40,000 nt of DNA, from contig NZ_CP182348.1 in NCBI RefSeq assembly GCF_048571175.1, positions 649,517-689,516 of the forward strand. The letters are read 5' to 3'. The position numbers and the translations under genes were made by a program. The DNA is from Terasakiella sp. (GTDB taxonomy: Bacteria > Pseudomonadota > Alphaproteobacteria > Rhodospirillales > Terasakiellaceae). Below, one piece after another: positions 6,755-38,209 of this stretch; position 1 is the first letter of the stretch; the number at the start of each line of letters is the position of its first letter. Under the pieces are notes generated by a model, which was not told where the DNA came from, ran no database searches, and was given only the letters and a program-made list of their open reading frames with translations.

Positions 6755-7615
6755 ATGTCTTTGCAAACTGATCTTGCGGCTGCCGTTGCACAAACAACGG
6801 CGGACGGACAACTACTACATCAAATCGTCCATGGGGATGACCAATCCGTCGTTCAAACGGAAGGCGGGAGTGTTAAAACCGTGGCCAAGGCCATGGCTGA
6901 CGTGGATGCCCAATTGCAGGGTAGCCTCACGGCGCTAGACGAGATGGTGGCTTCGGCAACCGACAGCGAAGCGCAGGCCGCCACCAGCGCGGCCAATGCT
7001 CTCTCCCATGAGCAAAGTGTCTCTAACAGTGCTGTGGCGGCAGCGACCTCGGAAACCAATGCCGAGGTCAGTGCCCAGTCAGCGGCGGACAGTGCCGATG
7101 CGGCAGCGTTGAGTGCCGCAAACGCTCAAACCTCAGAAACCGGGGCCGCGTCTTCTGCAACGGCTTCTGGCCAAGCGCAGGTGGCGGCTGAACAAGCAGC
7201 GGCCAATGCCGAGGAATCGGCGCAAGCCGCAGCAACTTCTGCCGAGGCAGCAGTAATGGCGTCCAGCTCTGCCACCAACTGCCAAGGCATCGCTCAAGGA
7301 CATGCGGAAGCGGCAGCCCTTTCTGCGCAAAACGCAGCTACTTCGGAGACAAACGCGGCCATCTCAGAAACCAATGCCGCCCAGTCGGTTGGACAGGCGG
7401 AAACCTCTTCTCTCGCTGCAAGCGCGTCTGCTGATGAAGCTCAAACGGCGGAAACCAATAGCACCTTCTGGGCCGGTGAAGCGGAAAGTGCGGCTGTTGC
7501 TGCGGAAGCGGCGGCGGTCATTGTCGCCAATGCCACCGGTCTTGATCTGCAAACGCTGATCGTATCGGCCAGGCGTGGATCGGACTATCGCGCCCTTGGC
7601 ATCGAACTATTTTGA
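6755..7615 (+). CDS. Tail-fibre-like protein with an Ala/Ser/Thr low-complexity shaft
   Basis: 286 aa. Globular N-terminus (LLHQIVHGDDQSVVQTEGGSVKTVAKAM), then repeated SA..A..SETNA-type units of the kind typical of fibre shafts. Confidence 0.5.
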   Translation: MSLQTDLAAAVAQTTADGQLLHQIVHGDDQSVVQTEGGSVKTVAKAMADVDAQLQGSLTALDEMVASATDSEAQAATSAANALSHEQSVSNSAVAAATSETNAEVSAQSAADSADAAALSAANAQTSETGAASSATASGQAQVAAEQAAANAEESAQAAATSAEAAVMASSSATNCQGIAQGHAEAAALSAQNAATSETNAAISETNAAQSVGQAETSSLAASASADEAQTAETNSTFWAGEAESAAVAAEAAAVIVANATGLDLQTLIVSARRGSDYRALGIELF

Positions 7616-7626
7616 GGGAACCTGAG

Positions 7627-8025
7627 ATGACGACCCTTGCTCACTATCAAACGCTTAAAACGGCTGAAGCCAATGCGTTCTCGGCCATCAGCGCCAAGCT
7701 GGATCAATCCAATCTGCGCATGGATGACTTCGCCCTCATGGTGAAGGCCGTGGAGCTCATGGAAAACATCCAGGATCCGTTGGCCTATGAGGCCTTGAAG
7801 CAAAAGATCGCCCAGAAATCTGTCGGCTTCTATTCCCCGGATTTGAGCGGGGAAGACTTGCTCATGCTGACCCGGGCCACCCGTATTGGCGACGTGCCTT
7901 TCGGTGCTGAAGAGCGCTGGAAGCTGATGAACCGGGATACCAGCAATCTGGATCTCGCCGGTGACGTCATGGTTGGCGAGCGTTCCCTTGAAGCCTTTGG
8001 CGAAAGCGTCCTTGAAAATCTGTAA
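7627..8025 (+). CDS. Hypothetical phage protein
   Basis: ATG at 7627 is preceded by gagggaa. The track start at 7612 is a TTG inside the upstream stop region. Confidence 0.5.
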   Translation: MTTLAHYQTLKTAEANAFSAISAKLDQSNLRMDDFALMVKAVELMENIQDPLAYEALKQKIAQKSVGFYSPDLSGEDLLMLTRATRIGDVPFGAEERWKLMNRDTSNLDLAGDVMVGERSLEAFGESVLENL

Positions 8026-8039
8026 TTGGAGAAACATCC

Positions 8040-8606
8040 ATGCCCCTCACAATCCCACCCATTCCGGACACGTCGCCTTTTGCGACCTTCGATGAAGATA
8101 TCGACATCTTCAGTAATTCGAAGGCCAAGGATATTCCGGCCAAGTTGAAGGCCATCACCGAAGCGTTGAAGGCTCATATCAACACCCTCTGGCTTGCCAC
8201 CGCGACCGGATTTGTAAACGACACGGTCATTGCGGACCTGAATACGGCGCTCGCCAACATCGAGGCCTTCAACAATGCCCTGGAAACTCATATCAACGAT
8301 CAATTGGCCGAGTTTGAGGTCAATCTGGGGAACTACCTCGGCGTTGGTGCCGGGTATTCGGTTGATGCAGCCAACGCGGCCCTGTTCACCGGCACCATTG
8401 TTTCAGGCGACTTGACCTACGACACCTTGGGCCGGGTCGTGTCTATTCAGCAAGGGCCTCGTCTCGTGGACAACATCACCTACGACGATCAAAGCCGGAT
8501 GACGAGCTATGACGAGACGCTGAGCATTGGCGGCATCGACTATGCCCGCAGCTTCACTTTCACCTATGCGCCCGATGGGCAAATCGACGCCATCACGGAG
8601 GTCTGA
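8040..8606 (+). CDS. Hypothetical fibre-associated protein with YD-repeat-like C-terminus
   Basis: 188 aa with an RBS (ggaga). The C-terminal motifs TYDTLGRVVSI, TYDDQSRMTSYDE and FTYAPDGQIDAI resemble YD/RHS beta-hairpin repeats. Confidence 0.5.
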   Translation: MPLTIPPIPDTSPFATFDEDIDIFSNSKAKDIPAKLKAITEALKAHINTLWLATATGFVNDTVIADLNTALANIEAFNNALETHINDQLAEFEVNLGNYLGVGAGYSVDAANAALFTGTIVSGDLTYDTLGRVVSIQQGPRLVDNITYDDQSRMTSYDETLSIGGIDYARSFTFTYAPDGQIDAITEV

Positions 8607-8608
8607 CG

Positions 8609-9952
8609 ATGGATATTCTGACGTTTAACGCTGTCAAACAGCAGCAACACCACCTGAACACGGACCTCTTGGATCCTTGGAAGCGTCCGGCCTTTGCCGT
8701 GGTGTCTATGGTTGGCTCATCCCCATGGGGAACAATTGTCTACAACCATTATCTCCAAGAAATGGGTCGCCAGAATTACAACGACAGCAGCTATACCCAA
8801 GGCTGTACCAGCAGTGATGGCACCGAGTTTTTTAACAACTGGTATTCTTACGGCCAGACCAATTCCAACATCTCTTCAACGGACTCGTCCTATGGCGACA
8901 ACACGGCCCGTTGCGGTCATCTGGGTCACATTGCCCTGGCTGTGGCTCCCGACGGCTCCATGATTGGCCGTGCAGCCCCTTATGCAGCAACGGCGCTTCG
9001 CAATGTCGGCGTTTGGGTCAATAACAAGACCAATAAGAACCTCGCCCTGTTTATGGAAAACCAATACGCCGGGGTTGCGCCCCGCGCCATCGCGCCAGGG
9101 CGTTTGTCCGGGACAGAAGGCTGGCACTTGGCCTGGACGGCGAACAAGTTCTACGCCCAGAACGATTTTGGCACTTACAGCAAGTACGGGATGATCGGAT
9201 ACAACGAGAAAACCCGCACCCTTGTGATCAATGAAAACACCAACGGTGGGACGGGCATGCGTTTGCATGTTTACTCAAGCGTTGCTCCCTTCGATATCCA
9301 CGCCTCAGACCGCAAAACCTGGTTCGATGCTCTGGACGAGGCCAATCATACCTTCTTTGACTGGACGGCAAACTCTGCGGGCTACAGCGAAAGCCTGTAC
9401 CGTGCCGTTGTTGTGCCTTGCGATGATGGGAAGGTGATCATCGTTCGGATGGAACCTCACAGTTATTGCATGCTGGATCGGTTCACGCCGGATGGTGCCG
9501 GTGGCTTCACACAGGAAGCGACTCACACGCTAAGCACCACAACGTCCTATGGGATGGAACAAGGGGATCGCAACGGTCTCCGCTTCCAGATCTCAAACGA
9601 CGGCAAATACGTCATTTGTTATCAGCCCTATTACTACTACGGGGCCGGGGCCGAGGTGTTCCTGATCCGGGTGTCCGACGGCAAGTATGTGTTCTTGCAG
9701 CATCAGGACAGCAGCTACGGGCGTTCTTTTGCGCCGATCCGCGACAGTGATTTCATGATTTCCTATAGCCCTAACTCTGACAGCGGCTACGGCATCTATA
9801 TGTCGCACATCGACACCAAGAGCATTTTTGAGGCGATCGCCGACAAGGGCGACATGAGCTCCAAGGTGCCGGGCTTCAATGTCTACATCTTCGACAGTGC
9901 CTATCACTCCACCAACTATCCTTACATCGTGCCGATCATCGGAGGTAACTAA
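8609..9952 (+). CDS. Orphan 447-aa protein, putative receptor-binding/tail-tip protein
   Basis: Strong RBS (ggagg). Composition is rich in Tyr/Trp/Asn/Ser/Gly/Thr, as expected for beta-rich binding domains. Called from context within the fibre module. No family recognised. Confidence 0.4.
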   Translation: MDILTFNAVKQQQHHLNTDLLDPWKRPAFAVVSMVGSSPWGTIVYNHYLQEMGRQNYNDSSYTQGCTSSDGTEFFNNWYSYGQTNSNISSTDSSYGDNTARCGHLGHIALAVAPDGSMIGRAAPYAATALRNVGVWVNNKTNKNLALFMENQYAGVAPRAIAPGRLSGTEGWHLAWTANKFYAQNDFGTYSKYGMIGYNEKTRTLVINENTNGGTGMRLHVYSSVAPFDIHASDRKTWFDALDEANHTFFDWTANSAGYSESLYRAVVVPCDDGKVIIVRMEPHSYCMLDRFTPDGAGGFTQEATHTLSTTTSYGMEQGDRNGLRFQISNDGKYVICYQPYYYYGAGAEVFLIRVSDGKYVFLQHQDSSYGRSFAPIRDSDFMISYSPNSDSGYGIYMSHIDTKSIFEAIADKGDMSSKVPGFNVYIFDSAYHSTNYPYIVPIIGGN

Positions 9953-24695: not shown

Positions 24696-26415
24696 AACCC
24701 AACCCCGCCAAGTTAGATTTGATCTCATTCTCCAACGCTTCGGCTGTTTCAAACTGGGATGAAAGTTCAGCCGATAGACGGGTCATCTTTTCTGTAAACG
24801 GTTCTGTATCTTCTTCACCGTCAACGGCACCGACGTAACGACCGGGTGTAAGCACAAAGTCGTGCTTGTCCATGTCTGCTAATTCGGCAGAGAAACAAAA
24901 GCCTTTTTCATCCGCATAATCAGTGCCTGTTTTCCAAGCATGGAAGGTCCCAGCAATCTTTGCGATGTCTTTATTCGTAAAATCACGCAGCACCCGGTCT
25001 TTCATGAAGCCGATATTTCGAGCGTCGATGAAGAGTGTTTTGCCGCTGCGATCTCGTTTTCCATTGCCGCCCTTTTTGTTTTTGGTTAGGAACCAGATAC
25101 AGGCTGGAATTTGTGTGTTAGTGAAGAGTTGGCCTGGCAAAGCAACCATACATTCTACGAGATCGTTTTGGATGAGAGCCTTACGAATAACGCCTTCGTT
25201 GTTGGTGTTGCTGCTCATAGACCCATTTGCGAGTAAGAGTGCCATAGAGCCATTGTTGTTCAGATGATGCAGCATATGAAGAATCCACGCGAAATTTGCA
25301 TTGCCTGCAGGCGGTGTTTCATACCCTTTCCAGCGCACATCATCTTCAAGGCTGGCATGCCACCAGTCTTTGATGTTGAAAGGCGGGTTGGCCATCACAA
25401 AGTCGGCGCGAAGATCTGGATGCTGATCATCTAAAAAGCTATCAGCGTTTTTCTTGCCGAAATTAAAATCGATCCCGCGAATAGCCATGTTCATGGCAGC
25501 CAATTTCCAGGTGGTTGGATTGCTTTCCTGACCGTAAACCGAGATATGTTTCTTCTGCTCCTGAGCGTTGTAATGCTTTTCCGCAGCATGGGCTTCGATG
25601 AATTTATCATTCGAGACGAAGAAGCCCCCCGCACCCATGGCAGGGTCGTAGACGCGGCCTTTATATGGCTCGAGCATTTCTACAATCAGGGTAACAACGC
25701 TTTTCGGTGTGTAATACTGCCCACCCTGTTTTCCTTCCGCGAGGGCGAATTGCCCGAGGAAATATTCGTAGACGTGACCGAGAATGTCTTTGCTGTGCAG
25801 GTCCAGCTTTTCCCCTTCAAATTCCGGATTGCTGAAGCTGGTATCCGAGAATTTGTTGATGAGCTCTGTAAGGTTATGGTTATCCACCTGATATTGACTA
25901 ATGCGTGGAAGGACATTTTTTAGTTTTGGGTTGGCTGGCTTATCGCCAATCTTATAAGTCTCAATGGCTTCAAGCGCATTGTCGATCAGCTTTGAAATAG
26001 ACGTTAGCTTGATGTCTTTGCCGCTCTCGTCTTGTCCGATAACGGAACCAATGGGCTGGGCAGCCGTTGTTTTCAGGAAGTCCCAGCGTGATTGTTTGGG
26101 CACCCAAAAAACATTCTTTTCCTGATAATACTCGTGAAGTTCCAACTCGGCGCTGACGGCTTCTTCGTATTCTTCGTCGCTGCCATAATCGTCACGCGGC
26201 ATGAAGTAGATGTTGTCGTCGCTGTCATCTTCCGTGAATAATTTGCGAAGCTCATTGCGGCGTTCTTCGAATGCATCAGATACATACTTTAAGAAGATGA
26301 GCCCTAGCACCACATGTTTGTAGTTGGCGGCATCCAGGTTGTTGCGCAAACGATCGGCAGCTTTCCACAGTTTGTCGTCGAGCTCTTTTAAGAATTTTTG
26401 TTCTGCTGATTTCAT
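24685..26415 (-). CDS. hsdM: Type I restriction enzyme N6-adenine methyltransferase subunit
   Basis: AdoMet motif YDPAMGAGGFF, catalytic NPPF (FVMANPPFNIKDW), and an HsdM N-terminal domain (LWKAADRLRNNLDAANYKHVVLGLIFLKY). Confidence 0.95.
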   Translation of the reverse strand: MKSAEQKFLKELDDKLWKAADRLRNNLDAANYKHVVLGLIFLKYVSDAFEERRNELRKLFTEDDSDDNIYFMPRDDYGSDEEYEEAVSAELELHEYYQEKNVFWVPKQSRWDFLKTTAAQPIGSVIGQDESGKDIKLTSISKLIDNALEAIETYKIGDKPANPKLKNVLPRISQYQVDNHNLTELINKFSDTSFSNPEFEGEKLDLHSKDILGHVYEYFLGQFALAEGKQGGQYYTPKSVVTLIVEMLEPYKGRVYDPAMGAGGFFVSNDKFIEAHAAEKHYNAQEQKKHISVYGQESNPTTWKLAAMNMAIRGIDFNFGKKNADSFLDDQHPDLRADFVMANPPFNIKDWWHASLEDDVRWKGYETPPAGNANFAWILHMLHHLNNNGSMALLLANGSMSSNTNNEGVIRKALIQNDLVECMVALPGQLFTNTQIPACIWFLTKNKKGGNGKRDRSGKTLFIDARNIGFMKDRVLRDFTNKDIAKIAGTFHAWKTGTDYADEKGFCFSAELADMDKHDFVLTPGRYVGAVDGEEDTEPFTEKMTRLSAELSSQFETAEALENEIKSNLAGLGYDC

Positions 26416-26428
26416 CTTTTTCTCTCAT

Positions 26429-27364
26429 TCACGCATTGCTGACGTCAGTCAGGAACTGTTGGTTGTGATGGCTGGTATACCCTGGTGCAATCGCAAGGTT
26501 TTCAACGCCGTAAAGGGTTGGGGTGTTCTTCAGCCACAGATGATACTCTGGACCGGCTAGTTTATGGTCTTCGGTGCAGTCCACATTCCACTTACGGAGA
26601 AGGTAGCCAGCAACGGCGGCTCGAACCTCTACATTGAGCAGGTTGTCAGACATGCCATATTCAAGGCTAATGGCTTCCGGGTGTTTAAGGGCAGGATGCG
26701 GAACGATATGCATCTCAACAATTCGGTTCCACTGTTTGTCCGCGTCTTTTATTTCATGAGGCAATATCAATACGTTCTTTGCAAGTTTAACGCTGGCGAT
26801 CCTGTTAATTACAAAATCAGAAAAGCGCTCTCTTGCACGGTCAAACCCACGCACATGCCAGCGAAGACCATTATCGACCAGTGCGAAAGGGACTATCTCG
26901 CGTTTTGAATTGCCGCTTGATATGGATAGGTAGGTGATTTCAAGGGGAACCTTGTTGTGGATTGCCCTAGTGATGGCAGCCAGAATATCAATATTGGGAA
27001 AATTCAGCTCTGTTGGAGCTTCGGCGGGAACCAGTGAGCATTCCGGGCTGACAAAATCATCCCCATAGCCATGAAGAAGGGCTGCAAGTGTCTGGCTCCC
27101 CGAATATTCGAAAAGGGGTCTGAAACCGTCACGCTGGATATAGGTTTTTACTTTTGTGTCATATTCGATGTTTTTAGGGGTTAAGTCTTTGTATTGGGAA
27201 AGGTCGCGTGAGGCTGCGGCTTCCTTGATCCCGAATCGCTCGACCAAATCAGATCTATTAACTGAGCCTAGGAAATAGAGTTTGAAGTCGATATGAAACA
27301 GTCGCTCCTGCTGTGCTTGGCTGATTTCGGCCAGTTTTGCTTGGATGTCATCCCCTGCAGACAT
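26429..27364 (-). CDS. wHTH-WYL transcriptional regulator (BrxR/CapW-like)
   Basis: ATG at 27364 with GGGGAGA upstream. N-terminus ERLFHIDFKLYFLGSVNRSDLVERFGIKEAAASRDLSQYKDL and WYL core REIVPFALVDNGLRWHVRGFDRARERFSDFVINRI. Its stop lies 13 bp before the hsdM start. Confidence 0.7.
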   Translation of the reverse strand: MSAGDDIQAKLAEISQAQQERLFHIDFKLYFLGSVNRSDLVERFGIKEAAASRDLSQYKDLTPKNIEYDTKVKTYIQRDGFRPLFEYSGSQTLAALLHGYGDDFVSPECSLVPAEAPTELNFPNIDILAAITRAIHNKVPLEITYLSISSGNSKREIVPFALVDNGLRWHVRGFDRARERFSDFVINRIASVKLAKNVLILPHEIKDADKQWNRIVEMHIVPHPALKHPEAISLEYGMSDNLLNVEVRAAVAGYLLRKWNVDCTEDHKLAGPEYHLWLKNTPTLYGVENLAIAPGYTSHHNQQFLTDVSNA

Positions 27365-27501
27365 TTTTCTCCCCAGTTTTATAGCGTGCCAGTTGCGGCT
27401 ATAAAGTAGCGTATAGGGATATATGGTATTTATATATGTGTCAATATGATAACCACTAAGGGTGTTGGTGTCCGATGTTTTTACCCTTGCTCTTTTCTGA
27501 A

Positions 27502-27539
27502 AGGGACGTGCCAATTTGGCGGCAGACTGGCACGTCCCT
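27502..27539. repeat. Perfect 12-bp inverted repeat AGGGACGTGCCA-N14-TGGCACGTCCCT
   Basis: Read directly, 140-175 bp upstream of the WYL regulator start. There is no proper T-tract on either strand, so it looks more like an operator than a terminator. Confidence 0.6.
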
Positions 27540-27711
27540 AACTCGCAAAGCTGATTGCCTATCAATCAACCTTTCGACCAGCAATAAGGTGCTAGTCTTG
27601 GTGGGCCCAGAGCGGGATCGCCGCCATCCCCACCTCCGTCCTTGATCCGCCCCTCACGACGGCGTCTCCGACGGTCCCCGCGCTTATCGGGTCCGGGTCC
27701 CCTTGGATGCG

Positions 27712-28617
27712 TCACTCGCGCTCAAGGTCACGGGTGTCAGCGCCAACTGCATCCATTACTGATCGAAGCTCGCCGAACATTGAGCCATGATGGCGATCCA
27801 GATAGTCGGCGATGGTTTCATTTTTCAGAAGTTTTGATAGGTAACCTTTGGCGACGACCAATGTAAACATTGTGTCTCCAAGCGTGTCTTCGACATTTCG
27901 GTATTCTTGTTGCAGGCGTTCCATTTCCCGCTCCATCCGTGCAATATCCTCAGGCGAAACGCCTTTGAGCATGTTTTTCTTTTCTGGTTTCACGAGCTTG
28001 TCCGGGGGCATTCCGGCCAAAAGAACCTTGGCATAAGTGACGGTGTATCGGTTTGCGGACATCATCATTTCGCAAGCCTCGATCTGGGCCATTGGCTTCA
28101 TCTTTCGGAGAATGCCGAACACCTGTACACTCACCATTTTTTCCTTCAGAAGTTCGACGGCCTCTGGCGCAATGTTTCGGAGCATGTTTTGGCGCTCACG
28201 AATGCGCTTTACGTCCACGTCCAAAGCTTCCGCGATTCTTTCTTGAGAAACGCCACGTTCAATCGCTTTGACGATCATATTGTGCTCCTGCACAGCACTA
28301 AGGCGGTTCACACGCCGATTGTATGTAAAGCTCTCATCGTCCGTTGAGACCAGGCAGATGGCTTCTGTTTCTCCAAGCTGCTTCAGGGCTTCTAAGCGGA
28401 GGTGCCCATCCAGCAGGATATAGTTTTTATTCTTTCCGGATCCTGAGTCAGGAAAAACCGCCAACGGTTCAATGATCCCCACGTCTTTAACAGAAGCCAG
28501 GATAGTTCGATATTTGCGTGTCCGGTGAAGCCCCTGTGAGAGAGGCCTAGTTGGTGCGATACGGTCAAGAGGGACCTGGATCGTGTCATCCAGAAATCCC
28601 TTGGTGATGGTGGTCAT
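27712..28617 (-). CDS. ParB/Srx N-terminal domain protein with RepB-C-like C-terminus (paralog B)
   Basis: Motifs IIEPLAVF...YILLDGHLRLEAL, an HTH (VSQERIAEALDVDVKRIRERQNML), and an ATGA overlap with the upstream paralog. Confidence 0.7.
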   Translation of the reverse strand: MTTITKGFLDDTIQVPLDRIAPTRPLSQGLHRTRKYRTILASVKDVGIIEPLAVFPDSGSGKNKNYILLDGHLRLEALKQLGETEAICLVSTDDESFTYNRRVNRLSAVQEHNMIVKAIERGVSQERIAEALDVDVKRIRERQNMLRNIAPEAVELLKEKMVSVQVFGILRKMKPMAQIEACEMMMSANRYTVTYAKVLLAGMPPDKLVKPEKKNMLKGVSPEDIARMEREMERLQQEYRNVEDTLGDTMFTLVVAKGYLSKLLKNETIADYLDRHHGSMFGELRSVMDAVGADTRDLERE

Positions 28618-29480
28618 GGATGCAACCTCTCTGCAAGAGGTTGCGGCATGTCGCTGTATCCTTCCGCTCGAAGGAGCGTTCGAAAATGCTCATCCGCCAA
28701 GAGACGACGTAGTGCCGAGATCAGAAACAAAAGGCGCTGCTCGTTAACGTCAGCCTTCTTGATCAACAGTTTCTGGCGGTTGACTTCATCTTGATAGGTT
28801 TGAACCAGCTTGCGGGTTGAAAAGGGCTTGTCTGTTCTTCTTGAATGGGTGCGATAGCGTTTACCCATGAAGCGACGGCGCTCGATTATGCGACGCACTT
28901 TGATGAGCTGATCTCCACGCAAGGCCCCGCTTTCATATGCTTCGGTCAGGCCTTTCTGTAATTCGTTTTCGCTGCTGCGCGAAATTTCAACGGCCATGCT
29001 AAGCGGGATTACGTTCTTTTCTACTGCAGCAATGAGCCGTTCTTCTCCTTCTTTCAGTAGGTGAGAGATGCCACGAACGTAAGTCACGTCCAAGTCTGTT
29101 TTCTTGGCGATTTCCCGGGCGTTATAGCCACGTTCCTCAAGATCCTTTATCCCATGGAGAAGATCCATATTGGTGTGTTGGCGACGAGCTATGTTTTCAA
29201 TCAGGCTCATCAGGTAGCAGTCTTGCTCTGACGCCTTGATGACCATTGCAGGAATTTCCGTCTCGCCGAGTGCCTGGTATGCCTCAACGCGGCCCTGTCC
29301 GCATACCAAGTCATACCCATTCCGTGATGGGGTGACGGTAATAGGCCTTTTCAGTCCAATCGAAGCGATATTATCGACGATACCTGCGAAGACTTTCTTA
29401 TTTCGCACACGCGGATTGATCACCCTTATTTGGTCAATCGGGATCATTTGAATAGAGGGTGAAACCGGTTGGCTTTGCAT
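28614..29480 (-). CDS. ParB/Srx N-terminal domain protein with HTH (paralog A)
   Basis: Motifs IPIDQIRVINPRVRN, YDLVCGQGRVEAYQALG, and an HTH (YNAREIAKKTDLDVTYVRGISHL). Its start ATG shares 1 nt with the recombinase stop (TAATG). Confidence 0.7.
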   Translation of the reverse strand: MQSQPVSPSIQMIPIDQIRVINPRVRNKKVFAGIVDNIASIGLKRPITVTPSRNGYDLVCGQGRVEAYQALGETEIPAMVIKASEQDCYLMSLIENIARRQHTNMDLLHGIKDLEERGYNAREIAKKTDLDVTYVRGISHLLKEGEERLIAAVEKNVIPLSMAVEISRSSENELQKGLTEAYESGALRGDQLIKVRRIIERRRFMGKRYRTHSRRTDKPFSTRKLVQTYQDEVNRQKLLIKKADVNEQRLLFLISALRRLLADEHFRTLLRAEGYSDMPQPLAERLHP

Positions 29481-31057
29481 TATGCGACCTCCTTCAAATT
29501 GACACGGCGAGCGAGGCGATAAAGGTAGTCCAAGCTGTCAAACCGATAGATGTCGAGGTTTAGCCCGTTCTCCTCTGCAAGTCGTAGTTTTGGCAAAGCC
29601 ATATCGATTGAAGGCAGAAGGTAATAATCAAGCGGCTGTTCGTTGCCATGGGCCATTCGAACGGCAATGGTGATGTCTGGTCTAAGCCCGGTGTCAAAGC
29701 GGATATTCCACCGGAGGGATCCCGCGTTTGTTTCTTGGCAGCGGCTTAGAACCAATGAAACGGTGAATTCTCTATTGATCCATAGGAGGCCAGTTTCAGG
29801 GTCTGTCTCGACTGTGCAGCCGAGGGCTTCAATGTTTTGTATGGTTGAGGCAACGATGTCCGGGTGCATTTCCCGGAGATGGCGATTGATTTCGATATAT
29901 CGATAGTCTCGGTCTGGCTTATAGCCAATTTTGTGGTAGGCGCGGATGAGGCTGCCAAACCGATGTCGATAGGCCCCTGACGACGGCATTCCTTCTGTTT
30001 CGTCGATAATGATGCCGGATAGAGCGCCATGTTTTTGTAGCAGCGTTGATAGGTGTTCAAGCATTTCGTCATCAGAAAAGCGGCGGTTTCGCTCTTCGAT
30101 GATTGCTTGTGCCGCTTGGAAAATTTCTGGATCGACAATTCCTTCAAATGCACCTTCGTTTCGAACCCACATCTCTGGGGGGTTGTCGACACGTTTATTT
30201 TTAAGCTTGCAAGAGGATCGGTTGTAGAGGTTGTTGCCGATGTATTTTTCGTTGGTCAGTAGTTGATGAACGGAGGCTCGGGTCCAAGGCCTGTTCAGAT
30301 CCGTAAAGATACCCTGTTCATTTAGTCGCGCGGCTATCTGGGCCTCATTTTGGCCGTCTTCAACGAAAGCCCGATACATCCAGCTTACGGTTTCAACTTC
30401 TTCGTCAGGGCCGGGGATTAGAATGACACGATCTGTCTGAAGGCTTTTTCGGTCGCCACGGTTTAGAATGCCTTTAGGGGAGCCCGTTTCGTCAACCATC
30501 ATTCGGCGGAGGCCATAACCGGCGGGGCCACCTTGTCGATAACCTAGTTCGATCAGACGGCACTGACCGGCAAAGACCTTGACGGAGAGCTCTCGACTGT
30601 ACTCGCCAGCCATAGCTCTTTTCACCGTTTTCACGATGGTGGAGCTGATGCTTCCGTCATTCTCAAATTGCTCGGCGCAGTATTCGACGCGGATGCCTGC
30701 TCGTTTGCACAGGTACTCGTAGAAAGCGCTTTCGTCAGAGTCCTGGAAACGTCCCCAGCGACTGACGTCGTAAACCAGAATAACTGAAAAATCAGCTTGT
30801 CCCGCTTCTACATCGTTGATGAGTCGCTGCAAGCCATCTCGCCCATCTATGTTAAGGCCGCTACGTCCTTCGTCGGCATAGGTTTTGATAATCTGGTAGC
30901 CCTTGCGGGCGGCATATTGGTGAATCGTGTCACCTTGGTTTTCCGTAGAGTATTTTTGGTGCTCTGTGGACATCCGAACGTATTCAGCCGCCCGGATGAG
31001 CGTCGCGTTATTTTCGGGAGATTTATCCGGGGCTGAATCCTGTTTTTCTGTCACCAA
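29480..31057 (-). CDS. Large serine recombinase
   Basis: 525 aa. Resolvase catalytic domain (AAEYVRMSTEHQKYSTENQ, VYDVSRWGRF), followed by a recombinase domain and a long C-terminal region. Confidence 0.9.
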   Translation of the reverse strand: MVTEKQDSAPDKSPENNATLIRAAEYVRMSTEHQKYSTENQGDTIHQYAARKGYQIIKTYADEGRSGLNIDGRDGLQRLINDVEAGQADFSVILVYDVSRWGRFQDSDESAFYEYLCKRAGIRVEYCAEQFENDGSISSTIVKTVKRAMAGEYSRELSVKVFAGQCRLIELGYRQGGPAGYGLRRMMVDETGSPKGILNRGDRKSLQTDRVILIPGPDEEVETVSWMYRAFVEDGQNEAQIAARLNEQGIFTDLNRPWTRASVHQLLTNEKYIGNNLYNRSSCKLKNKRVDNPPEMWVRNEGAFEGIVDPEIFQAAQAIIEERNRRFSDDEMLEHLSTLLQKHGALSGIIIDETEGMPSSGAYRHRFGSLIRAYHKIGYKPDRDYRYIEINRHLREMHPDIVASTIQNIEALGCTVETDPETGLLWINREFTVSLVLSRCQETNAGSLRWNIRFDTGLRPDITIAVRMAHGNEQPLDYYLLPSIDMALPKLRLAEENGLNLDIYRFDSLDYLYRLARRVNLKEVA

Positions 31058-31208
31058 GGCAATCCTTCTTTTGTGCCGTTACACCGACATTTGCATGTAG
31101 GCGAGTTCGGCCTTCTTCGAGACTGCATGGAACCCTACGTGCCCTATGGGAAGTCACGAGACTCTAAAAAATCAACAGAATGTACCGTATTTGTCAATCA
31201 TTAAATAT

Positions 31209-31342
31209 ACAAAATGTTGGAAAAAGTAGAGGGTGAGGTGTCTGTCAACTCCCGGTAAATACGCATTTTTTATGGGATGAAAGGGGGGTGATTCTAATCT
31301 AAGGTACACAAAATGTTGTTGTTAAGGTGGTTGAAATGTTGG
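31209..31342. promoter_or_regulatory. Repeated ACAAAATGTTG motifs in the divergent recombinase/XRE control region
   Basis: Exact 11-mers at 31209-31219 and 31308-31318, plus GAAATGTTGG at 31333-31342, inside an AT-rich 295-bp divergent intergenic region. Confidence 0.35.
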
Positions 31343-31352
31343 ATTATGAAGT

Positions 31353-31685
31353 ATGGACAATAGAATTAGTGAACTTCGTAAGGCAAAAGGGCTGACCATA
31401 AAAAGGCTGGCCGAGCTTGTCGGGACGAGCAATCAACAAATCAGCCACTTGGAGAAGGGGCATCGCCGACTAACACTCGAGTGGATGGAGCGAATCGCGG
31501 AAGCCTTGGAATGCCACCCATCTGACTTGTTAAATGGTGGAACGCGCCTCGAAAACGATCGAGAACGAGCGATGATTGAGCTGTTCCGTGGCCTTTCAGA
31601 GGAGCAGCAGGAAGCATTTTTACAAGCGACTGCTGCGTTGGCGAAACCGATAGAGAAAGAAGAAAAGAAGGTCAAAGCCGGTTAA
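31353..31685 (+). CDS. XRE-family HTH transcriptional regulator
   Basis: Motif LRKAKGLTIKRLAELVGTSNQQISHLEKGHRRLTLEWMERIAEAL. Confidence 0.85.
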   Translation: MDNRISELRKAKGLTIKRLAELVGTSNQQISHLEKGHRRLTLEWMERIAEALECHPSDLLNGGTRLENDRERAMIELFRGLSEEQQEAFLQATAALAKPIEKEEKKVKAG

Positions 31686-31693
31686 ATAGGAAT

Positions 31694-31718
31694 GGCCGCA
31701 CCGGTATTGGCTGCGGCC
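31694..31718. terminator. Bidirectional hairpin between the convergent XRE and integrase genes
   Basis: ggccgca (31694-31700) pairs with tgcggcc (31712-31718), followed by ttt. Confidence 0.45.
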
Positions 31719-31729
31719 TTTGACTTAGT

Positions 31730-32896
31730 TCAGATGCTTCCGCTATTCAGGCTGTCAAAAATGTTGGAAGAAACAGAGCTGGCGGCTGCCTTGACGGGAT
31801 CTGCTGCTAGATGTGCATACCGGGCAGTTGTTTGAACCTGGGTGTGTCCGAGAAGCTTACCAATCATGGGCAGGCTCATTCCTTGTGCAACGGCGTTGGA
31901 GGCAAATGAATGTCGCAGATCATGGATGCGAACATCTTCAATGCCAGCACGCTTGCGGATCCGTTGCCAGAATTTCTGGATTTCTTTGCGGTTGGTTCCC
32001 GGGATTTTGCCACAGATAACCCATGGGTTCTTTGGCTGCCGTTTGAGATTTTTCAGGAGATCAAGGGCAGGGGGGCCGAGATGGACAACCCGTGCGCCAG
32101 TCTTTGAGTCTGATAGCCGTAGGCAGCTGTTGGCGAAATCAACCTCTGCCCATTTGAGTGACATGATTTCGTTGAGACGGCAGCCGGTGAAAATGAGGAG
32201 GCGGATAGCAGATATAGCGTAGATATCATCAACACCCATTTCCTCAGCTTCGTTCAGCACTGAGCCGAGGTCGCTTAGCTCCTTCTGGCTGAGGTAGCGT
32301 TCCCGTTTTTCTTCAGGGTATTTTTTGATGTGTAGCCGTGGATTGGAGCCGTCAGGGCGCATTCCCCACATCTCTGCCATCGAAAACATTTTGGAGATGA
32401 CCTCAAGGTTCCGATTTGCCTGGTATGGGATGTGGCGTAAATCGTGATGGAATTTGGCGACGTCGGCCCGTGTCACATCAGCGACCTTCAATCGTCCAAG
32501 GGCAGGCAATATGAAGCGGCGGAGGTTGCGTCGGTATTCTGTGGCGGTGCCTTGCTTGAGGCGGACAGAAATATGTTCTTGATCGAACCGCTCTGCCAGC
32601 TCTTTCACCGTGCAGGCTTTTCGGGCTCGGGAACGTTCACCAGCAGGATCTTCTCCGTCCTTGACGGCAGCTAAAACCTTGAATGCCATTCGGCGGGCTT
32701 TTTCGGGAGTGAGGACACCATGGGCCCCAAGGCTCATGCGTCTGTATCGATTGCCGATCCGGTATTGAACGATATAGGAACGACGGCCACTTGGTAAAAT
32801 GCGAACGGCAAACCCGGCAAGATCGTCATCGCAGATGATATAGTCTTTGTCTTGCGGCTTGGCAGCCTCGACAAGGCGTTTGGTGATTTTAGGCAT
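31730..32896 (-). CDS. int: Tyrosine integrase with DUF4102-type arm-binding N-terminus
   Basis: N-terminus DDLAGFAVRILPSGRRSYIVQYR. Catalytic motifs HDLRHSFAS and LGHTQVQTTARYAHL. Confidence 0.9.
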   Translation of the reverse strand: MPKITKRLVEAAKPQDKDYIICDDDLAGFAVRILPSGRRSYIVQYRIGNRYRRMSLGAHGVLTPEKARRMAFKVLAAVKDGEDPAGERSRARKACTVKELAERFDQEHISVRLKQGTATEYRRNLRRFILPALGRLKVADVTRADVAKFHHDLRHIPYQANRNLEVISKMFSMAEMWGMRPDGSNPRLHIKKYPEEKRERYLSQKELSDLGSVLNEAEEMGVDDIYAISAIRLLIFTGCRLNEIMSLKWAEVDFANSCLRLSDSKTGARVVHLGPPALDLLKNLKRQPKNPWVICGKIPGTNRKEIQKFWQRIRKRAGIEDVRIHDLRHSFASNAVAQGMSLPMIGKLLGHTQVQTTARYAHLAADPVKAAASSVSSNIFDSLNSGSI

Positions 32897-32945
32897 AGGG
32901 CACCTCTTTGCGGCTGATTAACTCTCGGTGATTGCTGCGCCGTTC

Positions 32946-33133
32946 TTAATCCCTGGAATCATAGTGGAATCATGAGGGCTGGTTTCGGCGAGCAACCGAT
33001 CGAATGACAGCGTAAAGCGATGTCTGAATTAGTCCAGTAATATCAATTGGTTATAGTGTTTCTGCGAAATCTTTAGAAATGGCCATATCACGGCTCATAA
33101 TCTGAGAGCAGTAGAACGAAATCCTGCGCATCA
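32946..33133 (+). repeat. Attachment-site-like block A: arm repeats plus a decayed tRNA 3-prime-half-like core
   Basis: Homologous to block B. 32946-32979 matches 36137-36170 at 28/34. 33055-33091 matches 36182-36218 at 29/37. The core 33092-33133 starts with the ggctcataa-ctga anticodon-loop sequence. TGGAATCA occurs twice, 11 bp apart (32954, 32965). Confidence 0.55.
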
Positions 33134-33235
33134 TCCTGCTATCAGAGCGAAAACGTGAGTAGTTCGGATATACAGGTTTGTTTTCGCTGTGTCCCGCAGG
33201 TTTCTGGCCTTTTTCGCACCTCTTTGAGTTCTCTT

Positions 33236-33259
33236 GATTCCAGAAGGGAGGCTGGAATC
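33236..33259. repeat. Inverted pair of the arm motif: GATTCCAG-N8-CTGGAATC
   Basis: Read directly. It uses the same TGGAATC heptamer as the arm repeats in blocks A and B and lies about 100 bp right of core A. Confidence 0.4.
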
Positions 33260-33460
33260 GGGAAAGCTAAGGCCTGTTGGGAGGGGCGGGTGTGCCGATC
33301 CTCAGGTTATTGGGTGCAGGGTTTTAAATGTGCAGAAATTGTGGGGATGACATTTTTAGGATTTTTTTTGCCATCAGTGCTGCCGACAAAAAGGAACATT
33401 AGTGCGATTGATTTTGAGGTCGCTGCTTTGTGCAGCAAAAATCTGAAAATGGAGAGTGAA

Positions 33461-33610
33461 ATGACTTCGAAATCCTCGCCCAAAGGGCAAATGACAAAGG
33501 CGGCAGCAGCTCGAATTCAAAGTGCCACGGCAAAAGCCAATGGCGGACAAGTTGCCAAAGGTAGTTTCTCAAGTCGAGCAACATCGGCGGCAGCACGAAA
33601 AGGCAAATAG
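33461..33610 (+). CDS. Small Ala/Lys/Ser-rich hypothetical protein (49 aa)
   Basis: ATG at 33461 with GGAGAG 6 nt upstream, and its own terminator downstream. Sequence MTSKSSPKGQMTKAAAARIQSATAKANGGQVAKGSFSSRATSAAARKGK. The upstream part of the 151-aa track ORF is not credible. Confidence 0.45.
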   Translation: MTSKSSPKGQMTKAAAARIQSATAKANGGQVAKGSFSSRATSAAARKGK

Positions 33611-33618
33611 AAGCATTG

Positions 33619-33651
33619 GGGCGAAAGTATGTGCTTTCGCCCTTATCTTTT
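33619..33651 (+). terminator. Rho-independent terminator
   Basis: gggcgaaag (33619-33627) pairs with ctttcgccc (33634-33642), followed by ttatctttt. Confidence 0.65.
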
Positions 33652-33670
33652 AGTTTCAGGGTTCCAAATA

Positions 33671-33865
33671 ATGTATTATTCAAAGAATAAAGATATCGCG
33701 GAAATTGTAAGGAAACATTTGCGAAATGGATGGTGTTTCCGACGCGGTAAAAAGCACGGGAGGCTAGTAGCACCGGGTGGCCGGTTTGTGATTGTTCCCA
33801 CAACGCCAAGTGATGGGCGTGCAATATTTAATTTCATGGGGGAGTTACGCCGTTGCTATGAATAA
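33671..33865 (+). CDS. HicA/YcfA-like small protein (64 aa)
   Basis: The sequence KDIAEIVRKHLRNGWCFRRGKKHGRLVAPGGRFVIVPTTPSDGRAIFNFMGELRR aligns by eye with the HicA pattern (GW/F..R..G.H..L..P.GR...VP). It overlaps the downstream ATG by 8 nt. Confidence 0.45.
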   Translation: MYYSKNKDIAEIVRKHLRNGWCFRRGKKHGRLVAPGGRFVIVPTTPSDGRAIFNFMGELRRCYE

Positions 33866-36101
33866 GAAGGAAATTAAGACGAAACCACCATATCCAACGC
33901 TAGGTGAAATTATTCAATTGCTAGCAACGGCATTTGGCACCAAGTCGGCTAATGCAGAAATAAGGAAAAAACTCGATCGATTGGCCAGGGAAGGCGATTT
34001 TGATTGGAGCCTCCCATCACAAATCGTCGATGAATTGTTATTGAAACCGCTTGGCGAATTTGACACGGATTATTCTGAATTTGTCGGTGATTTTGTAAAT
34101 TTCATATTGAAAGAGCACGTAAACCTTATATCGCGAGTTTCACTTGATGCCATGTCGCGACGAGATGCGACGCCTTTGCTTTTTGAAACAATAGGCGTGC
34201 GACATGTCGCGGAATTTTTAATCGCGTTAAAAGAGCAATTCGGTGGGCCTGATCTTGGTGATTTTCTCGGTCAAGAAGTGAGTCCACTCAACGTTGTATT
34301 TCAATGGTGTGAAGTGGCGCTGGAGCTTGATGTGGCAAACCTGCTGTTTTCCGGCAATAAACAAAAACGAGACGATATTGCCCGTTGGCGTCGAGGAGAG
34401 ACAGTCCCAGATTTTTTCGCTTCTATAAGGCCTATCCAGCGTTCGCTTATGGAATGTTGTCCAGGTCGGCAATCGGAAATATCTCTTTTCGGAAAATGGT
34501 TGATTACTGCACGAACTCTGTCATGGCTTATGAGAGAGGTAGAAAAGGTAGGGTTGGGTTCCCTAATTGGGCCAGTCCGTCAAGACATTCTGTTGAATTG
34601 CCCAGTGCGGGATATTGGGATGGAGTTGTCGTCTGCTAATAGTGATGCGGGGAATCGTTTGAGGGAAGTGGCTGAATGTTGTGGGCCGCTTATGTTGGTC
34701 GGTTTGAGCAGGACAAAGGATAAGTCCTCTGAGGCGCAGTCAAATTCCCGTGGAGAAATAGATCGCCTTAAAGGTTTGATTAATAAGCACGATGCCGATG
34801 GCCTTACGGGTTACATATTGGATTGGTGTGAAGGCCGGTGGCATATTTTAGCGGGTGATCAAGTGAAGGCGCTTGCATTCTACGACAGGGCTGCAGATTT
34901 GGCATTGTATAGGGCAGGGGATAATCAAAAGCAAATTTTGGAAGAGGCTCTTTCTCTTGCGGCGCACCTTGGTAAGAAGACCGTAATTAAGAAACTCAAG
35001 CATCGTGCTTTGGCTATGGGGTTTTTCTCTGAATTATTTGCGAAATTTTCAGATCGTCCCGATGTTGTTTCAGATTGGGAAATTGACCAGCTTAGTCAGG
35101 CGTTTAATGTTTTATTCCCCATCCATGCTCGTTTCCCAGAGGCTCTCAAGAGAAAACAAAGAGTAACCCCTTTTCCGTTTCGAGCTTTCTATCAACCTGA
35201 TTCCGATAAGAGGAAACCAGACTTATCAAACCCGGATCGGGTTATTGGTATTCCAATGGCTGATGGAACGAAAATGCGTCGTCCACAGTTAATATGGTTT
35301 GCCTCTGAAGACCGTGTGGATGATGTTCGTGAACTTCTCAAAGCAGGGGCCGATGTGAACATTTCTGATCACCAGGGTGGTTCAGCTTTGCTGCATGCAT
35401 TGCAGTGTGCCGAGGATGGGCGGGGGCGACAGGTTCTTGATCTGTTACTAGACCAGAGCCATGATAAAGAAACCCTCAATCGGATGACCGAGAAAAAGCG
35501 TTTGTCTCCCCTGTACGTTGCGGTGCTTTTAGGGGATCCCACTGTGGTGGAAAAATTGCTGAGAATGGGAGCGGATCCCAATTTGCAAGCAAGTTATCCA
35601 CCACAGACAGCTTTATATGTATGTATCGAACGTTTTGCGTTTTACCGACAGGGCTGGGGGGAGGAGCATTTCAGGCAGCGGATGGCTGAGCCTCAAAAGG
35701 AAGATGCGGAAATACACCGGCGATACTCGGGAGGATTAGCCGGTGCTATGGGTGATCGGATGTCGATAGAAAAATTTGGACCGGAGGGGGCAAACTTAAT
35801 GGATGCCTTGATTAAGCATTTTGTTCAAAAGGCCTCAGATGTGCCTCGGGGTGTTTTTTTGCGGATTGCGGAATTACTGTTAACTTTTGGCGCGGACCCA
35901 AATCGAAAGCACTCATCTCCTGGTCCTGGGAGGACGCCTCTCATGTTGGCGGCTGAAAATGATGCGCTGGATGCTTTTCGCTTAATGACCGCTCATGCAG
36001 GTGATCCAAGCTTCAAGGATGATCAAGGACATGATTGTTTTGCACTGGCCTGTGGATTTGGAAGTCAGAATGTAATGTCGTATTTGAAGTGTGGTTCGTA
36101 G
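33858..36101 (+). CDS. Large helical/TPR-like protein with C-terminal ankyrin repeats (747 aa)
   Basis: About 5-6 ANK units from roughly 35280 onward (VDDVRELLKAGADVNISDHQGGSALLHAL; LSPLYVAVLLGDPTVVEKLLRMGADPN; RTPLMLAAENDALDAFRLMTAHAGDPSFKDDQGHDCFALA). The start is taken at ATG 33858 rather than track 33792. No P-loop was seen. Confidence 0.75.
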   Translation: MNKKEIKTKPPYPTLGEIIQLLATAFGTKSANAEIRKKLDRLAREGDFDWSLPSQIVDELLLKPLGEFDTDYSEFVGDFVNFILKEHVNLISRVSLDAMSRRDATPLLFETIGVRHVAEFLIALKEQFGGPDLGDFLGQEVSPLNVVFQWCEVALELDVANLLFSGNKQKRDDIARWRRGETVPDFFASIRPIQRSLMECCPGRQSEISLFGKWLITARTLSWLMREVEKVGLGSLIGPVRQDILLNCPVRDIGMELSSANSDAGNRLREVAECCGPLMLVGLSRTKDKSSEAQSNSRGEIDRLKGLINKHDADGLTGYILDWCEGRWHILAGDQVKALAFYDRAADLALYRAGDNQKQILEEALSLAAHLGKKTVIKKLKHRALAMGFFSELFAKFSDRPDVVSDWEIDQLSQAFNVLFPIHARFPEALKRKQRVTPFPFRAFYQPDSDKRKPDLSNPDRVIGIPMADGTKMRRPQLIWFASEDRVDDVRELLKAGADVNISDHQGGSALLHALQCAEDGRGRQVLDLLLDQSHDKETLNRMTEKKRLSPLYVAVLLGDPTVVEKLLRMGADPNLQASYPPQTALYVCIERFAFYRQGWGEEHFRQRMAEPQKEDAEIHRRYSGGLAGAMGDRMSIEKFGPEGANLMDALIKHFVQKASDVPRGVFLRIAELLLTFGADPNRKHSSPGPGRTPLMLAAENDALDAFRLMTAHAGDPSFKDDQGHDCFALACGFGSQNVMSYLKCGS

Positions 36102-36292: not shown

Positions 36293-36339
36293 GGCTCATA
36301 ACCTGAAGGTCGTCAGTTCAAATCTGGCCCCCGCAACCA
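36293..36339 (+). other. 3-prime half of an initiator-like tRNA-Met(CAT), from anticodon loop to CCA; probable attR core
   Basis: ggCTCATAAcctgaaggtcgtcagTTCAAATctggcccccgcaACCA matches the E. coli tRNA-fMet 3-prime half nearly base for base, with compensatory T-stem changes. No complementary 5-prime acceptor strand (tgcgggg) lies upstream. Confidence 0.7.
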
Positions 36340-36348
36340 AAAACTAAA

Positions 36349-36534: not shown

Positions 36535-38209
36535 GGCTGAGCGGTTTGCGTGAAGTAAATGTGGATATACACGCGCAAAAACAAGCTAAAATGGTTTGTG
36601 TTTGATTTTAAGTCAGCATAAAGCGTTCCGCTTTGACAGAACGCGCGGAGTTTTCCATTTTCGTGTTGCCTTGTTTTATCCGGGTGTCAGCCGTTTCCAG
36701 GCGGTGAAGAAGATGTTTTGGTAAGGATAGGCATCCGGGAAGCTCAATTTAATCCGGCGCACCGAGCGGATCACTTTGGCTCCAACCTTGAGCAATTTAA
36801 GCCGAATGGTGTTGGGCGCAGCCTTGGCCTGTTCAGTTTCCTTCAATGCTTTCAATCGAATGTGCGTCATCAGCGCATAGGCAAAGCCCTCCAGCAACAG
36901 GCGCAGGTAATTTGATCTGAACTTATGGGCGCTTGCACGCGAACCGAACAGGTCGAGTTGGCAATCTTTGATGCGGTTTTCCATATCGCCTCTGGGGCAG
37001 TAGATTTTTTCATAGAGCACACGCCCGACAATATCTTTGCCCGGTGTCTGTTTGTTGGCGATCATCTCTTTGCGCATCTGTTTAACCGCACGGATCACAC
37101 GCGGGCTGTGCTCATCCAGAGAGGTCATGAGAAAGCGCACATGCTGTTCGCGTCCCTCCTGATCTTCGATCTTGGCAATGACATTGTAGGGGCGGCCCCA
37201 GGAACCGCTCTTGGGAATATGGGCAAACAAGCCAAAGTTCTTGAGGAAGGTACGTCCTTCTTTGACCCGCTGTTTTGATGTTTGCGATCTGGCCTCTGTG
37301 GCTTTGCGCAACAGATAGGAATTACGCGCCAGCCCAAAGATAAAATCCACAGCATTCGCCTTGCACCAGCGGATCAGAGGTTTGCGCACAAAACCGCTAT
37401 CGCCACGCACCAGAATATCAACCTTTGGCCAGCGTTTTCGAATTTGCTTCACAATGCTGCTGATGGCCCGGCGTGCGCCTTTTGCCCCATCGCAATCCCC
37501 TTCGCGCAATTGTGCCCATAAGAGGTGTGGCCCGGCAAAAATATAGAGAGGCAGAAAACCACGTTGCTCATAATATCCGTTCCAGGCGGACATCTCCTGT
37601 CGCCCATGAACCTGAATATCAGTCGCATCAATATCAAGAATGATGTCATGGGGCGGCTGTTTGTGATGATCCAGAAACAGATCGCACAGTAGTTCCTGCA
37701 TTTTGTAAAAACGCGGGGATAGCTTGTGATAGCGTTTGTTGCCTGTTGTTGTGCAACATTCCACCCGTCCCAAAGTGACGGATGAGGCCAGCTTGTCTCT
37801 TTCCTCATCAGCCATCAACCGCAAGGCAGGATCATGACACAAGGCATCATGGTCATTTAAATCCTCATAGCCAAGCACCAGACCTGTTACCCGCTGAGCC
37901 AGTAAATCAGACAATCCGTGACGAACATAACGCTCATCACGCTTATCCCAAAAACAATCTGCCAACCGAGAAAACAGGTTCATCCGCTTTGCTGCTTCAC
38001 GTAACAAAACCACCCCGCCGTCCGACGTAATCTCCCCACCATCGAATGCCGCAACAACCTGCTTTTTGCCTTGACTGGAAAACAACATCGAAAAAACACC
38101 CTGTATTTTCTACATACAGTCTATTTTAACATAACTTACTGTTATAAATGAATTTATTAGGAGAAAGAAGAGAACTTGTGACGGATCCGGGATCTGGGAT
38201 CACTCAGCC
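36535..38209 (-). mobile_element. IS1380-family insertion sequence (ends approximate)
   Basis: Candidate terminal inverted repeats GGCTGAGCGGT (36535-) and the reverse complement of atcactcagcc (-38209) match at 9/11. The implied length of 1675 bp fits IS1380-family sizes. No target-site duplication was found. Confidence 0.35.
36676..38088 (-). CDS. IS1380-family DDE transposase
   Basis: 470 aa. N-terminus FDGGEITSDGGVVLLREAAKRMNLFSRLADCF...LAQRVTGLVLGYEDLNDHDALCHDP is typical of IS1380-family transposases. Confidence 0.85.
   Translation of the reverse strand: MLFSSQGKKQVVAAFDGGEITSDGGVVLLREAAKRMNLFSRLADCFWDKRDERYVRHGLSDLLAQRVTGLVLGYEDLNDHDALCHDPALRLMADEERDKLASSVTLGRVECCTTTGNKRYHKLSPRFYKMQELLCDLFLDHHKQPPHDIILDIDATDIQVHGRQEMSAWNGYYEQRGFLPLYIFAGPHLLWAQLREGDCDGAKGARRAISSIVKQIRKRWPKVDILVRGDSGFVRKPLIRWCKANAVDFIFGLARNSYLLRKATEARSQTSKQRVKEGRTFLKNFGLFAHIPKSGSWGRPYNVIAKIEDQEGREQHVRFLMTSLDEHSPRVIRAVKQMRKEMIANKQTPGKDIVGRVLYEKIYCPRGDMENRIKDCQLDLFGSRASAHKFRSNYLRLLLEGFAYALMTHIRLKALKETEQAKAAPNTIRLKLLKVGAKVIRSVRRIKLSFPDAYPYQNIFFTAWKRLTPG

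Follow-up and report, generated by a model that had tools for sequence, protein, structure and literature searches.

A large serine recombinase and two ParB-fold proteins at the core of a recurrent, possibly self-mobile cassette, often with a structured RNA

Why should a large serine recombinase be encoded in one tightly coupled operon with two ParB-like proteins, next to a defence cluster? The question is raised by a 40,000-nucleotide stretch of Terasakiella sp. DNA (NZ_CP182348.1, positions 649,517 to 689,516; ‘the window’, to which coordinates refer unless a locus or the genome is named). Three genes on its minus strand encode the recombinase (SR; 525 aa, 29480-31057, an open reading frame (ORF) with Pfam Resolvase and Recombinase matches), ParB-like protein 1 (PB1; 288 aa, 28614-29480, Pfam ParB_N and RepB) and ParB-like protein 2 (PB2; 301 aa, 27712-28617, Pfam RepB, E 1.3e-41). 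An earlier reading of the letters of this DNA (the original prediction) had described these three genes as a translationally coupled trio; they are a unit, and a divergent helix-turn-helix (HTH) regulator gene and a structured RNA, both overlooked there, belong with them. The trio may be the central part of a small mobile cassette of ~4 kb that is complete in itself and moved by its own recombinase, a reading for and against which the evidence below is about evenly balanced.

Both gene junctions, read directly, lie exactly where they had been claimed. The SR stop and PB1 start codons share one base at 29480 (TAATG, preceded by AGGAGG; ...AGGAGGTCGCATAATGC), and PB1 and PB2 overlap by ATGA at 28614-28617 (...TCCATGACC). 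Candidate starts of SR are TTG (31057) or GTG (31054), downstream of an AGAAGGA ribosome-binding site.

A pattern-seeded scan with one genome per species gave 153 PB2 relatives, from which 80 loci were kept and supplemented with three plasmid loci (83 in total). The census of a recombinase plus two ParB-like genes that the original prediction had called for found SR, PB1 and PB2 in this order on one strand in 75 of the 83 loci, four others being cut by contig ends and four decayed. The trio had been expected to recur in alphaproteobacteria and does so as a conserved coupled unit, with a wider host range that includes Beta- and Gammaproteobacteria and Verrucomicrobia. Of 400 Pseudomonadota species sampled evenly, 25 (~6%) carry a PB2 homolog, in one copy each. 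The cassette occurs on plasmids (67-111 records), in chromosomal islands and in predicted proviruses, and the unit was found in 30 IMG/VR contigs. Identity across lineages is 58-66% for SR and 40-55% for the ParB-like proteins, and the SR tree is in conflict with taxonomy, indicating horizontal transfer; a distant blastn search of E. coli genomes with the SR gene gave no match. The cassette is also carried by L087 (NZ_CP110863.1), a linear 13.5-kb sequence recorded as a ‘plasmid’ of Lactiplantibacillus plantarum; its SR is 61% identical to that of the window, and the record is probably a contaminant or mis-assigned contig.

The unit has discrete ends. In Paracoccaceae, copies with 92-97% identity in different genera share only ~3.9 kb, from the stop codon of the HTH gene to just past PB2 or the RNA, within mosaic flanks, and sphingomonad copies have the same limits. 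In Agrobacterium the cassette is 3,904 bp long, and the copies on pAtC58 (strain C58) and pAt1D1460 are 96.9% identical within unrelated flanks. A ~20-bp direct repeat close to GCCTTGAAGGGAATTGAACC is found exactly twice per occupied Agrobacterium locus, at both cassette ends (chance expectation for the 20-mer, 0.07 per locus). The unoccupied plasmid pAtCFBP5507a has the left flank, one copy of the core and no cassette, and Agrobacterium plasmids carrying only the left flank break off within this core, independently after AbiEii and after Fic. The bracketing repeat, together with the single core at the unoccupied site, suggests that the recombinase most likely moves the cassette itself. In a second lineage (L036) the cassette is bracketed by a 28-nt repeat (z 6.6).

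An integron-like array, with the core also delimiting neighbouring toxin genes, was considered and rejected, as the core lies at the two cassette ends only. The flanks of a Pseudomonas aeruginosa megaplasmid copy were searched for an empty site and gave two identical plasmids with no informative polymorphism. In an 11.3-kb Caulobacter contig carrying the cassette (L060), the contig ends (1-20 and 11325-11341) form a perfect ~19-nt inverted repeat that is missing from the 99.3% identical copy in L059, which points to a repeat or insertion sequence (IS) present in inverted copies on both sides.

Several observations weigh against a cassette that moves by itself. The empty-site check suggested in the original prediction yielded the single-core site of pAtCFBP5507a, and no clean site was found for the window copy; likewise, no single Agrobacterium plasmid joins both flanks without the cassette, so that a clean empty site was not found there. 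A search for a bracketing direct repeat around the cargo and cassette of the window gave none above chance. Close relatives share the cassette, the adjacent tyrosine integrase and the attachment (att) block collinearly, so the window copy may be fixed in an island backbone. The core, which resembles a tRNA T-arm, was rejected as a general target, since a scan of all loci finds it in the Agrobacterium lineage only. Finally, the usual single copy per sampled genome is unlike a proliferating transposon, although one sampled genome has two copies.

If the cassette is mobile, its operon would be repressed by the HTH protein, and the recombinase, once expressed, would cut and rejoin DNA at short sites at both cassette ends, excising and inserting the cassette rather than the 68-kb element that hosts it in Terasakiella. 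PB1 and PB2, probably paired, would bind DNA as accessory factors and set either the direction of recombination or its synapsis, or retain the excised circle. The RNA would be the co-transcribed 3′ tail of the operon, acting as a regulator or cofactor, and the window copy would be a resident, nested in a composite tRNA-Met island/prophage between a tyrosine integrase and swappable defence cargo. Every biochemical role in this scheme is inferred.

What kind of recombinase would do this? SR matches the resolvase catalytic domain (PF00239, E 9.5e-24) and, at residues 219-323, the Recombinase domain (PF07508, E 2.4e-23). Across 29 SR homologs the catalytic block YVRMST.HQ.YSTENQ does not vary, and all catalytic blocks are retained in SR when aligned with these. 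In Foldseek searches the AlphaFold2 (AF2) model (predicted local distance difference test score, pLDDT, 73.6) matches the SPbeta SprA, PhiC31 and Bxb1 integrases over ~330 residues. The remaining ~195 residues (330-525), conserved across the family, have no CxxC pairs and no zinc-ribbon Pfam hit (PF13408); in the model, of moderate confidence, they form a bundle of helices and a beta domain without a long coiled coil. The C-terminal domain, as modelled, is thus non-canonical among large serine recombinases. Scores of SR against the NCBIfam models of CcrB, CcrC and XisF are far under their cut-offs.

Both partner proteins were predicted to combine an N-domain, an HTH and a helical C-terminus, and Pfam, profile and Foldseek matches bear this out. 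PB1 has PF02195 (ParB_N) and RepB matches, and its residues 11-202 align to Thermus thermophilus Spo0J through the N-domain and HTH (phmmer). The N-domain of PB2 is of a degenerate ParB type; over residues 6-170 its family profile hits Noc, Spo0J and KorB, and its AF2 model (pLDDT 76) aligns to ParB, KorB and Noc across ~200 columns and has long C-terminal helices at 222-300. The two are indeed paralogs, as claimed, albeit distant ones (27% identity over 139 N-terminal residues, E 7e-9).

As described, both proteins depart from the canonical arginine patch (VCGQGRVEA in PB1, LDGHLRLEA in PB2), and they do so across the whole family. GQGRxEA stands in PB1 where GERRxRA is expected (box II, CGQGR.EA), while EN.ARR (box III) is retained, both family-wide. 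In PB2, DGHxRxxA takes the place of GERRxRA (LLDGH.RL) and TYN(K/R)R replaces ENxxR, again family-wide. CGQGR.EA and LLDGH.RL are at least 90% conserved in ~100 homologs. Neither protein thus keeps the full GERRxRA/ENLQR set of motifs for binding and hydrolysis of cytidine triphosphate (CTP), ENxxR being lost in PB2. Judged by these altered boxes, nucleotide binding by PB1 and PB2 is possible and canonical CTPase chemistry is doubtful.

Could the ParB-like proteins serve partition instead? No ParA was seen inside the cassette in any locus inspected, and the absence of a ParA-type ATPase claimed for the window extends to the ~68-kb composite element around it, which has zero matches to PF13614, the one profile searched. 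A 30-kb Paraburkholderia plasmid carries the trio plus its own Rep and ParA. A match of the C-terminal two-thirds to PF07506 is shared with RepB of repABC systems, but the cassette lacks RepA and RepC, its carriers have their own partition genes, and the match to NCBIfam partition_RepB is 28.7 bits against a cut-off of 201.5, with parB_part likewise under its cut-off. The cassette is not a classical partition system, as the original prediction had argued. A related reading, which seems rather unlikely, is that the cassette is a maintenance module of its carrier, acquired for stabilisation, in which the recombinase resolves multimers or co-integrates and the ParB-likes retain or position DNA without ParA, e.g. 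by tethering or clamp-spreading. Its wide occurrence on plasmids, islands and predicted proviruses, the ParB/KorB/Noc fold with HTH kept by both proteins and the single copy in most sampled genomes fit this role, for which parCBA of RK2, a resolvase plus accessory proteins, is a precedent. Carrier plasmids, however, already have Rep and ParA, SR is a large integrase-type enzyme rather than a small resolvase, the GERRxRA patch is lost, and the bracketing repeats and once-only core in Agrobacterium fit cassette insertion.

The operon is followed by a conserved structured RNA of ~130 nt (27573-27704, minus strand, as the operon), which begins 8 nt past the PB2 stop codon. The ~120 nt past this codon are near-invariant among relatives with only 75% identical coding DNA, and an nhmmer profile locates the stretch in 72 other loci, at a distance of 30-90 bp past PB2. 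The genome containing the window has it once. For 38 diverse copies aligned with MAFFT, RNAalifold gave 33 pairs, 22 with compensatory changes. In a trimmed alignment made from sequence only, 97.1% of cells pair, with double changes in 15 of 26 pairs; none of 500 shuffles reaches the observed level of covariation, and slid controls pair at 34-45%. The single-sequence folding energy is no better than that of shuffles (z 0.79), so the case for structure is made by covariation only. Many G-U pairs are seen on the operon strand only, and become A-C mismatches when the other strand is read, which favours transcription of the RNA in the same sense as the operon. A cmscan of 26000-34000 against Rfam at E≤1 left the RNA unmatched and gave only a chance hit elsewhere. 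An att mimic, with the RNA copied from a host RNA gene, was considered and rejected, as the RNA is single-copy in the genome and has no Rfam hit.

A covariance model (R1) scores 136 bits on the window RNA, which was in its seed, and finds the full-length RNA in seven of 150 other alphaproteobacterial families, each time adjoining PB2 (in one case a decayed remnant). In that case (L129, 5770-6492; G111 contig 40) an intact RNA lies beside an apparent decayed remnant of the PB2 C-terminus, and the RNA seems to outlast the genes. The RNA is present in ~60% of cassette lineages; the covariance model and inspection of downstream sequence found neither it nor an equivalent in the Beta/Gamma, Verrucomicrobia and Agrobacterium lineages. 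Cultured hosts with the RNA include Cereibacter ovatus, Paracoccus sp. ME4 and Sphingobium sp. R-21. Mapped on the SR tree, the presence of the RNA requires at least six changes, which makes it an old RNA, repeatedly lost or replaced beyond recognition. A strong hairpin with 17-nt arms lies ~35-70 nt past the RNA (27502-27539), on the cargo side of the point where homology to relatives breaks off, and could be the operon terminator or part of the control of the BrxR gene.

It is conceivable, if improbable, that the RNA is an obligatory partner in a ribonucleoprotein machine, in which it would load, bridge or gate PB1 and PB2 and thereby license the serine recombinase. The RNA is too conserved between lineages for a programmable guide, leaving a structural or allosteric role. 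Such a machine would be a form of serine recombinase control, and a use of the ParB fold, for which no precedent has been described.

On its other side the trio is accompanied by a fourth gene, on the plus strand (31353-31685), encoding an XRE-type HTH regulator of 110 aa (Pfam HTH_3, E 1.6e-14). This gene is kept with the trio in L004-L006 (90-97%) and L012 (61%), and in 46 of 81 loci a different HTH family (~115-150 aa, motif RT..NW..G..PS...L) is encoded there instead, also divergently. The AT-rich spacer between the regulator gene and the recombinase operon (31058-31352) is a putative divergent promoter/operator and includes one weak sigma-70-like match on the minus strand (31325-31296). 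Three to four copies of ATTCTCCGCA, including an inverted pair, were seen at ~6865-6965 of L039 and at equivalent spots in ~17 Paracoccaceae loci, between the end of the HTH gene and the start of two different Fic genes. As an att site the cluster was rejected, since it sits where the neighbouring Fic gene begins and is missing from the right end of the cassette; it is probably an operator.

Does the recombinase then belong to the cassette, or to the larger element around it? The genome is one contig (3.78 Mb, 47% GC) in which the trio is single-copy. An intact tRNA-Met gene is located at genome positions 617931-618007, 31.5 kb to the left of the window. Its 3′ end recurs, without mismatch over 47-49 nt, at window 36293-36341, and the two sites together mark a stretch of ~68 kb as a composite integrated element. 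This contains IS copies, an SNF2 helicase, a lambda-like prophage (gpA terminase and tail genes at 55-58% GC), a 3.2-kb islet and a BrxR-led restriction cargo, the last followed by the trio. Beyond the trio lie the divergent XRE gene, a tyrosine integrase of P4 type (31730-32896) and a degenerate att block. Four relatives (95% and ~75% DNA identity) are homologous from ~27597 through the trio, XRE gene, tyrosine integrase and att block; on the cargo side the homology ends abruptly within the 3′ portion of the RNA, just beyond its core helices (~114 bp past the PB2 stop). Among the best 30 homologs of this tyrosine integrase in 401 alphaproteobacterial genomes, only two have the cassette beside them, the one in this genome and one at 91% identity. 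In L017, a contig of a gammaproteobacterial metagenome-assembled genome, a cassette with RNA is followed by an att-like block and by a tyrosine integrase that has 58% identity with the one in the window (5540-7469), the cassette lying on the opposite side of the homologous integrase/att block. Together, these two findings point to the cassette as a passenger acquired by this island lineage rather than part of the backbone of this integrase family.

A recombinase serving as integrase of a larger prophage or island, with the ParB-likes as its directionality or accessory factors (as in XisF-XisH/XisI or DsiB systems), is very unlikely here, since the window element has its own tyrosine integrase by the tRNA-Met att copies, the trio is internal, and identical cassettes are found in unrelated flanks. 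In its favour, the cassette lies just past a phage tail/host-specificity gene in seven loci, integration modules combining a large serine recombinase and a ParBc protein are known in Dehalococcoides (PMC3146451), and 11 of 15 Paracoccus prophages with serine recombinases have integrases of one cluster and no identified att site (PMC6536676), although cassette membership of those prophages is putative. Many IMG/VR provirus contigs also start or end at SR, but such limits may be set at recombinase genes and hence may not be independent.

Beside the passenger cassette of the window lies the defence cluster, and that neighbourhood, claimed from the outset, stands. Relatives with 75-95% identity in the cassette, on the other hand, have wholly different cargo, such as WYL or HsdM genes (<30% identity) in place of BrxR and type I restriction-modification (RM) here, and the link between trio and defence cluster is one of neighbourhood only. 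Recurrent neighbours elsewhere are Fic (19 loci), tyrosine integrases (17), HipA-like kinases (15) and phage tail/host-specificity genes (7), as well as AbiE, McrBC and type I RM, all typical contents of accessory regions. From these surroundings a cassette tied to conflict between elements might be proposed, either as a platform for exchange of cargo just past the RNA, where homology gives way to BrxR/type I RM in the window and to WYL/HsdM in L004-L007, or as an undescribed defence or addiction system in keeping with the Fic, HipA, AbiE, McrBC and type I RM neighbours. There is little probability in either form: neighbours of this kind are expected for any passenger of accessory regions, genes downstream occur in either orientation, the Agrobacterium core brackets the cassette only and does not delimit the adjacent toxin genes, and SR, PB1 and PB2 match no defence model of PADLOC 2.0.

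How does the putatively mobile cassette compare with described systems? SR has the resolvase and recombinase domains of PhiC31/Bxb1/SprA, TnpX/TndX and CcrA/B, and insertion or excision at short sites is likely common to them. Known large serine recombinases have a zinc ribbon or coiled coil where SR has its own conserved C-terminal domain, and work with a small directionality factor, whereas SR of the cassette is always accompanied by two ParB-fold genes and often by an RNA. In the fdxN element of Anabaena the large serine recombinase XisF likewise depends on two accessory proteins encoded with it, XisH and XisI; these two are not known to have a ParB fold, and SR scores 19.9 bits against the XisF model (cut-off 375).

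The closest arrangement is in the ssrA islands of Dehalococcoides, whose module includes a ~540-aa serine recombinase (DsiB), DsiA, a ParBc protein and an embedded tRNA-like RNA locus (PMC3146451). A recombinase, a ParB-domain protein, an RNA and islands at an RNA gene are shared with the cassette, but that module has six genes (with a second small recombinase and RecF-like, Mom and polymerase-domain proteins) and one ParBc protein instead of two ParB-likes, and DsiB overlaps attL at the island end while the window trio is internal. KorB of RK2, BisD of ICEclc and Noc resemble PB1 and PB2 in fold, in the succession of N-domain, HTH and C-terminal helices, in the lack of ParA and in their setting on a mobile element; they retain GERRxRA, in contrast to PB1 (GQGRxEA) and PB2 (DGHxRxxA, without ENxxR), and the cassette always has the two paralogs together. 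A published case of a ParB-fold role outside segregation is that of BisD (PMC12409273), and a 2025 survey of the ParB-CTPase fold makes no mention of recombinases (PMC12704722). Literature searches by topic terms and by the C58 protein accessions gave no functional study, in line with what had been supposed. The cassette is thus uncharacterised, the nearest described arrangement being the Dehalococcoides module with its different gene set.

Large serine recombinases are widely used to engineer genomes, and how accessory factors control them is under active study. The cassette adds a natural family, in ~6% of sampled Pseudomonadota species, in which a recombinase without the usual zinc ribbon or coiled coil is tied to two ParB-fold proteins, and may hold a new mechanism of directionality or retention, a non-segregation role of the ParB fold and a new class of RNA. 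It is a recurrent passenger of defence islands and prophages, the genes of which are mislabelled as ‘plasmid partitioning protein RepB’ in annotation. The copy on pAtC58 of Agrobacterium fabrum C58, at ATU_RS24135-24150, makes it directly testable.

Two further features were noted around these loci. ORFs with DDE_Tnp_1_4 transposase matches are present in the window (36676-38088; 470 aa) and in L084 (3333-4769 and, putatively, 7224-8660; 479 aa each), where they were defined stop-to-stop and flank an SNF2-family helicase; distant homologs of this helicase occur in the cargo of L004, L006 and L007. Upstream of the gpA terminase gene, L085 encodes a ParB_N-DNA methyltransferase fusion (3105-4529; genome ~640905-642329), in the arrangement of the ‘ParB-Tls locus’ of Paracoccus phages (PMC6536676); the fusion is unrelated to the ParB-like proteins of the cassette.

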